Source of the DNA: Eledone cirrhosa
Lineage: Eukaryota
DNA length: 64,000 bases
Direction: 5' to 3'
Assembly (NCBI GenBank): GCA_964016885.1
Contig: OZ024746.1
Span: forward strand, 9,300,001 to 9,364,000
Shown: positions 915-51,352 of the stretch, one piece after another
How positions within the stretch are numbered: the stretch's first letter is position 1
Layout: every line of letters begins with the position of its first letter
The notes under the pieces: model-generated
Told to the model about the DNA's origin: nothing
Databases searched by the model: none
What the model saw: the letters and a program-made list of their open reading frames with translations, nothing else
Translations under genes and position numbers: made by a program

Positions 915-972
915 AGGAACCAGTAAGACCCCGACAGCTGAGCTCAAGCCGTTTCGACGGCTAATTCTGGGA
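915..972 (-). mobile_element. PLE family C 3' fragment (3' half of HHR only) between TA tracts
   Basis: gaccccgacagctgagctcaagccgtttcgacggctaattctgg matches copies at 21100, 46790, 47080, 51170. Confidence 0.75.
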
Positions 973-2770
973 GTATAGTATATATATATATATACTATAC
1001 ATTATACATATATGCTCACACACTCACACACTCACACACACAAATATATATATGTATCCATACATACATACATACACACACACACACACACGCACACACA
1101 CACACACACACACACACACACATATATATATATATATATATATATATATATATATATATATATATATACGTCCACGTGTACACATATGCGAATTTAAGTT
1201 CTTCTCTGTAGACTGAAAAAAATAATTAGCATCCTTAATCAATTTTCAATCATTATTGGGATTGCATCACGAAAAAAACACTGTGAAATACGTAACTGAT
1301 GGCCTTATAAAGCCTATTGTGTTTGGTATTGAATTTATTAGTTCGGTCTGTTTAACCACATGTAGGCCTGGCCGAGCATACATTTCATCAAATGCCCTCT
1401 AGACATGACGAAAACCACCCTCTTGGGAATTGCTTATCTATGATTACATCATACAACCTGTTCTCTTCAAATATTTGCTTTCAAGACAGCAGGGCATAAT
1501 TTGAGGAATTATTGGCTACCATTCCTAGAACACCAAGTGGCAATTCCTTCGATGGCTCAGAATTTTTTAATATATATCAATATATCTAAGCTGCAAAAGA
1601 CACACTTCTGTGTATCAAGGAAGCTAACATCTCAGATTCAGTGTTATGTCAGATGTGCAGAATAATAATGAAAACCGATAGGTCATGCATAAATTACTGC
1701 AGTATTTTGTTTTTGTTTATTTTGAACTCTACCTGAACATATTACGAACAAAATAACATGAAATATAAAGTCTTTGTGTCGACACAAAATAGATTGTATT
1801 GGATCCTTGAAGTAAGAGTTATACATCATAATAACATTATTTTACATACCAACGAAAAAAATAAATTAAAGAGTATCTTGTAAAATTCTATTAAACTATT
1901 CTAAGTTTGAAATATCCGAATGTCTTTTAGTTGCAGATATAAAGATTGAAGATATAAATTTTAGTTCAAAAATTGCAGACTTTTCAAAAGATTATGATAA
2001 AATGATTCGTACTCAATATTCAACATTCATCAATGGAAAGAAAAACTCAACATCTCCACCGCGGAGCCAACGAAAACAAAAACAAAGCAAGCAAAACTGA
2101 AAGTATGGTCTTATGGCAAAATTACCTTTCTTAACGCAAGTAAATAATCTAACGACATATAAATAATAATAAAAAAAAGATTTGATGCGAATAATGGTAA
2201 TTACTCATCTTGATAGGCGTATTATTCTTTTAGTTAAATGAACAAAATGATGAGCGAAGGAAAAGAAAAATCAAAGGAGAAAATTGTGGATGATAAAACG
2301 TTATAGATAGAAAAAATATTGTTCAGAAGAAAAACAGACTAGATATTTTTTTTAATACGGTATTTTTTATTTATTCCATTCACAATTTCTGTAGCAGCAA
2401 TTCAGTACATTCTTATGATCAAAGGAAGATGGGAAAATATATATATACATACACATAAAAACCTGCAAGGAAACACATACACAAACGTATCACAACAATG
2501 CCTCACAGATATGCTCGTACCTAAACGCACACATATATGAATATAAATATATGATGTGATCTGTATCACACGTGCGGCTCTATTCGTGTTATTCTTCCCC
2601 CATCTTCTACTATTCCCTTCTATCGGTTCTTTTTTTACGAAAAAGAGATTAAGCTCGAAACGTCAATCAACTTTCTCTTTCCATTTCCAGAACGTCAGAG
2701 TCAGATTACTATATTTGCTTATGTTGTCGTTCTTGTTAAGGTACAACTGTTGTCCTATATATATATATAT

Positions 2771-2905
2771 GAGCCTCGTGAGTTGGAATGGCTCTTCCAG
2801 CGCATCTCCCTTATCATCCTCCGAGGAAACGCCTTCTCCATCCTGTCCGCCGGGGCTGTGGGAAGGCCAGCACGTGGGACCCCATTTGCTCCCCATACGG
2901 ATTAA
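2771..2905 (+). mobile_element. CRE-clade non-LTR retrotransposon, C-terminus of restriction-like endonuclease (fragment)
   Basis: Manual translation EPRELEWLFQRISLIILRGNAFSILSAGAVGRP resembles the CRE C-terminal QRIS.A..RGNA..IL motif; homologous to 10640-10865; begins directly after (TA)n. Confidence 0.75.
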
Positions 2906-3084
2906 TAAGCAAAGTTATAAACATCTGTAAATAAATAATTAAGATTGTGGCTAAAGTTGTTTACTGAAACAACATTATCATTGAGTAATACACAATTGGT
3001 GGTGTTTCTTATGAATATGCAAGACAAGAGAAGTAGTTACACTATTTGTATATTGTATCAACAGTTTTCCAAGAGATGGCAACA

Positions 3085-3200
3085 TGAATGGACCTGTTAT
3101 TTTTCTCTAAAACCATTTTTTCGATTCCGCCCTGCCAGTCCTTTCAAACTTTACGACCCTCTTCCTGCTATTTAGAACGTTAACTTAATATATTTATATA
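3085..3200 (+). mobile_element. Internally deleted copy of HHR family E element (HHR missing)
   Basis: tgaatggacctgttattttt...gaccctcttcctgctat matches 58131-58267 with the ribozyme segment absent. Confidence 0.55.
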
Positions 3201-3674
3201 CATATATATATAATTCAAATTATACGATATATGCATATATATAGAGAGAGAAAGAGCCATATACTATTAGAGAAACAGTATTTTGTACACATATATAAAG
3301 CATATAATATTTAGGGAAAAATACGTAATTTAAGGTGGAAAAGTTCTTATTTTCTTTGCGGTACCGTTTCATTGTTCGAATATATTTTCCTCTGATCCTG
3401 AAAAACGTCATGTGTATCATCTGTCTCTCCTTGACTAAGTGGTAAAACTATATTGGTGGGTAGGGCTTCATATATAGTGTGGATAGTGTATTTTCCATGG
3501 ACTATACAGTAAACAATGAAGAGAAATGAATTTAACCCTCAGCCAAGTTGAGAAGGAATATTCAGAGGTGAAAATCAATAAAGAAATGCTAGAACAATAC
3601 TGAGGCAGGCAGACATAGAAACGTTGGAAATAAAAATGTAAAACAGTGAAATATAATCAGAGAAGTAAATATAT

Positions 3675-49112: not shown

Positions 49113-49262
49113 ATTTCTAGTTTAGGCAGAAGGCCAAAACTTTTAAGGCAGGGGAAAGTTGGTTATATCGATCCTAGTACTCGACAGGTATTTTTTTCTA
49201 TCGACCTAGGGAGGATGAAAGGCAACGTTGACATCGGTGGAATTTGAAACCAGAAACGTAGA
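49113..49262 (-). mobile_element. Old SINE family 1 copy
   Basis: tatcgacc...ggatgaaaggcaa core on minus. Confidence 0.8.
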
Positions 49263-49599
49263 AAGGTGAAAAGCAAATAGAATGTCATGGCAAATGCTCT
49301 GTAGATGGTTCATTAATTTGTCCTGCTTGATTGCATTGTTTACCTAGGTTCCTTATAAGTGGTCACGGTAGACAAACCAAGATAATTTTCTTGAATATAA
49401 ATACTTTCAGTTAGAGCTTTCTTGTCATACCAAAACCCTCAGTCTGATCTTCGACTTCTTCTTATGAGGTTAAGACCTGAATTGCCAAGGGCTTTCTCAA
49501 GAACGAGGAATACTAGCATAGGTATGTCACAATTTTATTCTAGTAACTGGATTTTGTGAACTCGCGCGTTTTCCTTATTCAGGAGATATTACCTGAACA

Positions 49600-50700
49600 T
49601 AAATTCTCTGGACGAAGAAAACCAAGTTGATGACCTCGTACTCGTAACCGTTTATCGAGAAAAAATAATAAAGTCATTCATGATGCGTCGAATGTTTGGA
49701 TGCACACAATAAACATGTAATAGAAGGTTTCAAGTATAATATATGCACATACGATGGTAAATTATGCCCAAATAGTTTCCATGTGATACCAAAACAACGC
49801 TCACACTGTCCCTTTCTCAAAGGGTGGTATGGGAACGAGGGGCTAGTTGAGTCTTCTCCATCATGCCAAACATACTTCAGTTCGGAAGCCATGGCATGAA
49901 GGAGGTTTCTCGATATGGGTCGACATCTCCAAGTAAATAGAAACTATTGTTGTTAGGTAAGAAACAACAATAGATTTATAATGTAGTGGTAGAGGAAACG
50001 AGATGCAAAACAGGAATATCCATCGACAATAATCAACAAATATTTCTTACTTTGCGTTGAGTGCAACAGAATCTTAAATTTTGTGTTTCTACAGCCCAAA
50101 CTTGCATGTATGTGATGAGCTGTTGCTGTTCTTGATGATAGCATTATGACTTTGACCTTTGACGAGTATGGTTGATGACCAGGGAGTTCTAAACGAATGT
50201 TTATTCACAAATTTCACGTTTAATGTTGCCTATCGAATACGGAAAATGTTGTAACTAAACAAAACACAAACTTGTAATACAAGGAAGTCGGAAAGATTTG
50301 TAGGGCAAACAGGTTAGTTTGTGAAGTATTATCACAAACACTATACGTCCATGGATCAGTTCAGCAAAGAAATCTGGCATAAGGTATATAAGTCTAGTGT
50401 GATATTTTCTCATTCGTAATCTTTATTTGGTGTTTTATATCGAGATAAGCTACGGATTTCAGATTCGTCACTAAAGTAACCATTCGCTTAAAATGGTGCG
50501 CATGCGTTTGATGGCCTCAATTATTACATAGGCCTCCTTTTCTACGACACAGTGATCTTCTCGGCAGAATATAAAGAATGAGAAAATAATACTATACGCC
50601 TAAAGTTTTCATTAAGAAAATCCTCATGGCACCCTCAGAGGCGTCCGTGTTTTCCAGTAAACACCATATGTTCCTTTAGTCATGACAGATTCTCCAATAT
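49600..50700 (-). mobile_element. Decayed Ty3/Gypsy pol fragment (RNase H then integrase)
   Basis: TDASEGA (50650), VEKEAYVIIEAIKR (50545), NEKI (50415), YLLIIVDGYS (50040), PYHPLRKGQCER..GITWK (49820), in RH-IN order. Confidence 0.8.
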
Positions 50701-51076
50701 CTGTTGTGAAGTCATTGATTTTCGTTGCAAACTCTTCTTCGAGCGGAAACAGTGCATCGATTAAGAGGTCTTATTCTTTCAGAGAAATGAGAAAACATTC
50801 GAAAATAATAATTTATCAGCCATAATATTATGCCATATGTGTTTGTATGTATATGTGTATATATATATATATATATATATATAATTCTTATGAAAGGCTG
50901 AATGAGTTGGGGTCCAGAACCCAACATAATTTAAGTACCTGTTTATGTCACCGTTGTAATTATACTAAATTCGTTCTATGGACTGAGTGCTCTTGTCCTT
51001 GGATATTTATACCAAACTTATACTACTGTATGTATGTATGTATATATATATATATACATACATGTATATATGTATA

Positions 51077-51352
51077 TAACGAAGGAGGTGTGGTAAGGAA
51101 CCAGATGGACCATAACACACCAGAGTACACAATACTTAGGGTAGTAGAGTGGGTAATAGGAAAAAGTTTAACCCCGACGGCAGAGCTCAAGCCATTTCGA
51201 CGGCTATTTCTGGACAGAAATAGCCGTCGAAACGGCTTGATCTCTGCCGTCGGGGTCATACTTTTTCTATTTCCCACTCTACTACTCTAAGTATTGAGTA
51301 CTCTAGTGCGTTATGGTATGATTCATCCGGTTCCTTACCACATTCCTTTGTT
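51077..51352. mobile_element. PLE family C fold-back with full tails on both arms
   Basis: Whole element is an imperfect palindrome, apex about 51213 in HHR stem II. Confidence 0.85.

Follow-up and report, generated by a model that had tools for sequence, protein, structure and literature searches.

Short two-armed insertions of a Hydra-type Penelope-like element in Eledone cirrhosa probably mark a capped RNA 5' end inside hammerhead stem II

We analyzed a 64,000-nucleotide stretch of the Eledone cirrhosa genome (assembly GCA_964016885.1, contig OZ024746.1, positions 9,300,001 to 9,364,000; hereafter the window) and followed one of its repeats, family C, through the rest of the assembly. Judged by its motifs, from which the clade was assigned, family C is the pseudo-long terminal repeat (pLTR) of a Hydra-type Penelope-like element of ~3.1 kb. 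Short arms of this pLTR, many of them joined head to head, share a common breakpoint that is real and genome-wide. In our assessment these are probably abortive two-armed insertions of the element, with arms that stop at the capped 5' end of its RNA, inside stem II of a predicted hammerhead ribozyme. Coordinates below refer to the RNA-sense strand, with +1 being the A of AGTCCAG (window 47125 on the minus strand, 47781 on the plus strand).

Arm ends were collected from 150 loci, namely the best 60 hits for two tail variants plus the first 90 of 3,519 hits identical to the tail-less end, which together yielded 322 distinct arms, two loci of the window included. The outer ends are at +60 in 149 arms (tail-less) and at +141 in 141 arms (tailed), both joined to (TA)n, a distribution that partly reflects this selection; in 340 kb of unselected DNA, 13 of 15 arms end at one or the other position. 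The inner ends gather at +1 (55 arms), +2 to +8 (133) and -5 to -1 (22), with none at -14 to -6, while 24 lie at +9 to +20, 46 at +21 to +60, 19 further down, and 23 arms read through. Thus 210 of 322 arms end within -5 to +8, as do 9 of the 15 arms from unselected DNA. Relative to a uniform distribution, 210 of the 262 ends located between -14 and +37 fall in this interval (p ~1e-76), which agrees with the initial annotation in placing the apexes non-uniformly, in the 3' strand of stem II. In short-read contigs from one sample, which may be the source individual, loose ends occur at +1, +60 and +141, the strand switches are joined at +1, and the summed depth drops, roughly estimated, about twentyfold upstream of +1; the breakpoint is therefore no artefact of this assembly. 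Asymmetric fixed ends and about 5% divergence between arms rule out an assembly artefact as well.

Within the window, five copies had been described as family C insertions truncated in the 3' strand of stem II. Three of them (at 21013, 46775 and 51077) are indeed head-to-head family C copies with inner ends at +1 to +5, and those at 21013-21221 and 46775-46972 have the form described, whereas the pair at 51077-51352 is inverted but carries a tail on both arms. The remaining two belong to other subfamilies, 915-972 to C2 and 7752-7915 to D, which lacks ggctatttctggac and has the stem ggatctagctgtc; the apex of the D copy (7782/7783) nevertheless occupies the position homologous to the family C edge, 18 nt before GAAA. 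Among 30 subfamily D loci, whose ends were read by eye, no read-through copy was found. The number of inverted copies remains four, 915-972 being a non-inverted single arm, all five short copies lack the core 5' strand, and the copy at 46987-47841 does read through, with its apex near -330. Two separate family C insertions (46775-46972 and 46985-47841) stand tail to tail in one (TA)n tract, and similar clustering occurs at L021, L089, L097, L101 and L105.

The read-through arms contain a type I hammerhead that is plausible by motif and predicted fold, in line with the earlier description of a hammerhead-bearing family. Stems, GAAA and GUC are present, and the core is UUGANAA, not CUGANGA, with position 7 varying among copies; this U3/A8 variant presumably keeps the 3-8 pair. 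A strict hammerhead descriptor had no match in the window, and no hammerhead appeared among the 150 of 236 Rfam matches listed, whose microRNA hits were dismissed as microsatellite and palindrome noise. The predicted stem II consists of two parts and spans about -38 to +18, with GAAA at +19 and the predicted cut after +41. Position +1 lies 4 bp into the upper helix, 3-4 nt from the upper loop, and the foot of the stem lies near +16.

The initial annotation had suggested that this hairpin stalls reverse transcriptase (RT), whereupon the complementary DNA (cDNA) snaps back and copies itself. The position of the apex in stem II in C, C2 and probably D fits such a stall, and self-priming has been proposed for comparable palindromes in Adineta (PMC3846280). 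The edge, however, lies mid-helix, where it would be reached only after the whole lower helix had been copied, and the foot at about +16, which RT meets first, shows no peak (24 of 322 ends at +9 to +20). Moreover, among 30 pLTRs contiguous with an open reading frame (ORF), 9 end at +17 to +100, 3 at the edge and 18 further upstream; the hairpin was thus crossed on this second pass by 18 of 21 ORF-contiguous pLTRs, compared to 23 of 233 terminal arms (p 1e-13). A second family, B, has its own fixed edge outside the ribozyme, in sequence without a predicted stem 3' strand. Of its 38 arms, 13 end at -2 to +6 of TC|ATATG, none at -33 to -3, 11 read through and 14 are shorter, so that 13 of the 24 arms reaching +6 stop at -2 to +6. 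Further head-to-head palindromes of other families are present in the window (7081-7434, 26091-26473, 26876-27169 and 32892-33233). They adjoin (TA)n on one side, and motifs resembling CTGANGA lie 50-70 nt from the apex, which, read by eye, is upstream of these motifs. They are probably other Penelope-like families.

The relation between partner arms bears on the same question. Among 130 head-to-head pairs, 124 combine a tailed with a tail-less arm, five are tail-less on both sides and one is tailed on both; a further 48 truncated arms are unpaired. In 36 of the 124 mixed pairs the arm without a tail outreaches its tailed partner on the 5' side by 10 nt or more (the reverse holds for 13), and in 14 of the 130 pairs both arms reach +2 or beyond. 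Since a fold-back copy can hold neither sequence that its template lacks nor its own primer bases, the arms appear to be separate cDNAs, and the fixed +60 end likewise requires priming of its own. Partner arms nonetheless share variants (39, compared to a mean of 3.9 and a maximum of 13 in 1000 shufflings) and differ by 5.4% versus 6.8%, which bears out the expectation that arms of one locus are closer to each other and suggests that they usually derive from one RNA or one source locus; later gene conversion could add to the shared variants. The pair at 46775 follows this rule: its minus-strand arm has rare variants in common with the other arm, from which it differs at 1 of 48 nt, compared to 8-11 for other loci. 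The exception is the pair at 51077-51352, whose arms (4 differences in 48 nt, versus 2-3 to other loci) are no closer to each other than to other loci, so that its second arm possibly comes from a second RNA template. Stalling followed by snap-back is consequently quite unlikely as the main route, although recurrent registers fit hairpin priming and a minority of junctions (registers +1/+5 and +1/+7) may have arisen in this way.

Junctions between partners show microhomology as well as templated inserts, range from 6-nt microhomology to 43-nt inserts, a range typical of microhomology-mediated end joining, and occupy 113 different registers in 130 pairs. This diversity argues against a few amplifying palindromic masters, that is, against the other explanation put forward earlier, in which the short palindrome is itself a mobilized non-autonomous unit. 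One exact junction class, two complete arms one base apart, is common to 164 loci, and at least 3,519 tail-less ends match one 27-mer, as a mobilized unit would predict. Against it, the commonest register occurs in both polarities (6 and 5), the same G:C junction is found in subfamily C2 (L105), and such a unit would lack both the sequence beyond +141 and the upstream part of the promoter. We regard this explanation as very improbable.

An untemplated G marks the edge at -1, where the template base is T. In the 164 junctions with two complete arms one base apart, the first 50 listed contain G:C at this base in 46 cases and A:T in four (p 4e-10 against 0.5), and arms ending at +1 without a direct partner junction are preceded by G in 21 of 34 cases, compared to 19 of 101 at other ends (p 6e-6). 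An extra G is also seen in C2 (L105, a G:C junction), in D (L237, L240 and L246, by eye) and in B (L265 and L287), where it accompanies 2 of 4 arms ending at +1. The G at window 46829, which precedes the tailed arm of the 46775 pair, is ambiguous and could be either a cap G or the base of the partner. Untemplated G at full-length 5' ends is an accepted signature of a copied cap for L1 and SVA (PMC4859970), and the extra G:C pair speaks further against stalling and snap-back. At the edge the sequence reads TTAGTC or TCAGTC, and TATTTAT or TATTTAA stands at -31 or -29; this context is kept in C and C2 although upper stem II differs between them. The initiator (Inr) consensus is TCAKTY, and the context is thus near both the Inr and the TATA consensus. 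As a separate observation, four copies of the G-plus-start motif with a 74-nt period are present at G000:C3:187250083-187250328, where a short arm has turned into a tandem array.

The same fixed 5' end could instead result from processing, by a nuclease cut in stem II or by recapping, with the rest of the mechanism unchanged. Processing would account equally well for the hard edge, the independent arms and the end-added base, and +1 is only 3-4 nt from the upper stem II loop. The correctly spaced Inr-like and TATA-like motifs in C and C2 speak against it, as do the Inr-like edge of family B, which lies outside any predicted stem, and the 40 nt that separate +1 from the ribozyme's own predicted cut site (+41), where just 6 of 322 ends are located (+40 to +42). 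On balance, we consider processing unlikely.

Several points weigh against a capped start as the origin of the edge. The 150 loci were chosen for high identity at their 3' parts. The G is not universal: at -1, the 77 arms extending over +1 carry T (22), C (23), A (3) or G (29), many of the C being the base of the partner arm. Junctions with a (TA)n flank have G in 55 of 93 cases, but genome-wide the base after ATATATAT shows the same G:C ratio (677:117), so that this test is confounded, and its control at +6 comprises only seven matches (six with template C, one with G). Some RTs add untemplated C at any template end, and the G therefore marks a template end more surely than it marks a cap. 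Shared variants between partners fit snap-back or later gene conversion as well. Finally, copies bearing the ORF represent a selection for processive RT, so that the second-pass contrast carries less weight, and 11 of 24 family B arms read through.

Natural full-length copies of the parent element carry a single ORF, starting at +232, with the RT motifs DIES and YRDD followed by an endonuclease (EN; VIYQC...YIGLT). The ORF has 30 homologues in marine invertebrates (33-44% identity), one of which has PF01541, and a Pfam search of two ORF fragments matched no family. The partial tandem (pLTR), the inverted 5'-truncated copy and the optional tail are all present, as in EN+ Penelope-like elements. 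Features of the Hydra clade present here include the linker CxCX5C (here CNCPDRSTC), DKT, a C-terminal EN, (TA)n flanks and the hammerhead motif; the EN has no CCHH, with one Cys in the GIY-YIG core, CNLC before EE and CKH after N (corresponding to CxxC and CxH). The element has RWR where the Hydra clade has RWK, and at ~3.1 kb it is slightly long compared to the usual <3 kb. We rejected the Neptune clade, whose CX2-5CxxC linker and CCHH in the EN are absent here, and also a non-LTR retrozyme, as the short copies are head to head and lack the core strand instead of forming tandem units with a complete hammerhead. More distant Penelope-like RT ORFs lie beside family C copies at L055 (sense ORF fragments near 6036-7676, in tail-first orientation) and L056, and judging from these ORFs the genome holds several Penelope-like families. 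A fragment at window 60736-61071 resembles Penelope-like RT coding sequence by eye and has inverted ends of 78 nt.

If a capped start is assumed, the following scheme would connect these observations. RNA polymerase II would initiate at +1, directed by the TATA-like motif at -31 and the Inr-like motif, and the element protein would bind near the 5' end of its own RNA. Its EN would cut both strands of a (TA)n target, and each 3'-OH would prime RT at one of two internal sites (+60 and +141). With only 60 or 141 nt of template upstream, both cDNAs would run off the cap, and the host would end-join the two free cDNA ends. This is comparable to the strong-stop DNA of LTR elements, also a short run-off cDNA from an internal priming site close to the 5' end, although that product is tRNA-primed and not inserted. 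The position of the apex would be set without RNA structure; the self-complementary TGGACT(C) end would then determine which registers are commonest, so that the apex sequence influences the final few bases, though not where the apex falls. Long and full-length copies would derive from a rarer template without a 5' end at +1, either multimeric read-through or circular RNA. Because long copies rarely stop at +1 on the second pass, such a template fits better than repeated jumps on a capped monomer and is likely, even if it is the weakest step of the scheme. About nine in ten of the arms reaching the edge stop there, and most family copies would accordingly be dead by-products of internal priming.

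A broader reading, which we offer tentatively and hold to be possible rather than probable, is that the hammerhead doubles as the core promoter, with the 5' strand of stem II supplying the TATA-like motif and the 3' strand the initiator, and that two RNA pools exist, one capped and linear, the other ribozyme-processed and circular or multimeric. The capped linear mRNA would give rise to the protein and mostly to short two-armed strong-stop insertions, while full-length partial tandems would come only from circular or multimeric RNA. Promoter-born RNA would start with half a ribozyme and thus could not cleave its own 5' end. If true, one scheme would cover the pLTR, the tail, the inverted arm and the job of the ribozyme.

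Neither the element nor its anatomy is new in kind (PMC8557442, PMC3846280). C-terminal EN+ elements of the Hydra clade (Craig et al. 2021, PMC8557442) share the single ORF with RT followed by GIY-YIG, DKT, CxCX5C, CxxC and CxH without CCHH, as well as the hammerhead in the pLTR, (TA)n targets, partial tandems, the inverted 5'-truncated copy and the optional tail. They differ from the present element in RWK instead of RWR, a tail of 30-40 nt instead of 81 nt, the length of the unit (~3.1 kb here) and the hammerhead core (the U3/A8 variant here); the fixed capped 5' edge proposed here is absent from the examined portions of that account. In Penelope and Chlamys-3 the start site lies within the pLTR (PMC8557442). 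In vitro work on the anole element Poseidon PAc (Frangieh et al. 2024, PMC11167929) showed cutting and extension of both target strands, RT initiation at two internal sites that define the tail, and no need for ribozyme cleavage. Family C resembles it in its AT-rich targets, in a tail defined by two fixed 3' ends, and in the proposed cutting and extension of both strands, with cDNA that crosses the uncleaved ribozyme site; unlike in Poseidon PAc, the two sites are 81 nt apart in the 5' untranslated region and not in the ORF. The consulted parts of that study leave aside the cDNA ends and the joining of inverted arms.

The inverted-pLTR palindromes of Adineta vaga Penelope elements (Arkhipova et al. 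2013, PMC3846280) likewise have head-to-head pLTRs with one arm tailed, and TATA and Inr motifs in the pLTR. They were read as self-priming, possibly with an antisense template, whereas the junctions described here point to two sense-templated cDNAs. L1 twin priming (PMC4859970) is similar in that second priming from the other target strand creates an inversion and untemplated G marks the RNA 5' end; the two arms of L1, however, derive from different stretches of the RNA and begin at poly(A), while here the same 60 nt are present in both arms. The type I hammerhead and the link to the pLTR of Penelope-like elements are shared with animal non-LTR retrozymes (bioRxiv 10.64898/2026.07.22.740005); the copies here, unlike retrozymes, are not tandem units, lack the core strand and have an autonomous parent. 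The origin of tandem and inverted Penelope-like ends and the role of the hammerhead are called open in PMC8557442, PMC11167929 and PMC3846280. Here, thousands of young copies resolve the boundaries to the base, with two sites of priming, a single run-off site where a G is added, and scars at the junctions, and these boundaries argue against self-priming as the source of head-to-head palindromes. A literature search by title and abstract start, with subscription papers and supplements largely outside its reach, returned no earlier capped start or strong-stop product for such elements.

Table 1. Family C copies, relatives and predicted signals in the window (positions within the window)
Position	Strand	Feature	Remark
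914..970	-	Lone tail-less arm, subfamily C2, +4..+60, within (TA)n, not inverted	C2 variants match read-through copies L135/L170
7752..7782	-	Short inverted arm of subfamily D that has lost its outer part; 5' end (7782) at the position homologous to +1	
7783..7915	+	Tailed arm, subfamily D, from +2	
21012..21152	-	Tailed arm, +141..+1	
21153..21161	.	Junction insert of 9 nt, templated by +7..+15, end-joining scar (locus L095)	
21162..21221	+	Tail-less arm, +2..+60	
32892..33233	.	Head-to-head palindrome of family B, for comparison; the apex lies at the fixed edge of that family, 69 nt upstream of its CTGATGA core	
46774..46829	-	Tail-less arm, +60..+5	
46830..46972	+	Tailed arm, +1..+141	
46985..47455	-	Tailed read-through arm, +141 to about -330, complete predicted hammerhead (core 47170-47164, +1 at 47125)	
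47461..47841	+	Read-through arm without tail, from about -325 to +60	
47731..47825	+	Type I hammerhead (predicted) with stem I, core UUGACAA (47736-47742), a long stem II in two parts, GAAA (47799-47802), stem III, GUC cut after 47821 (+41)	Motif and fold
47750..47757	+	TATA-like TATTTATT, -31..-24, also stem II 5' strand; putative promoter element	
47779..47784	+	Hexamer resembling an initiator around +1 (47781); family C has TTAGTY, a C2 copy TCAGTC; putative transcription start	
51076..51215	-	Tailed arm, +141..+2	
51215..51354	+	Second tailed arm, +5..+141	

The window also holds other repeats and a match to an RNA gene. A frequent dispersed repeat with a tRNA-like motif (GGCGGGATTTGAACTCAG) and inverted pairs occurs at 9027-10168, 11544-11883, 16407-16976 and 34189-35414 and looks like a short interspersed nuclear element. 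On the minus strand, 5214-5285 matches U6 small nuclear RNA (Rfam score 58.2, gathering threshold 44) over only 72 nt, perhaps as a retrocopy with internal loss. A near-perfect palindrome at 43845-44269, with 212-nt arms that are 100% complementary, 1 nt between them and (TA)n on one side, is a very young insertion.

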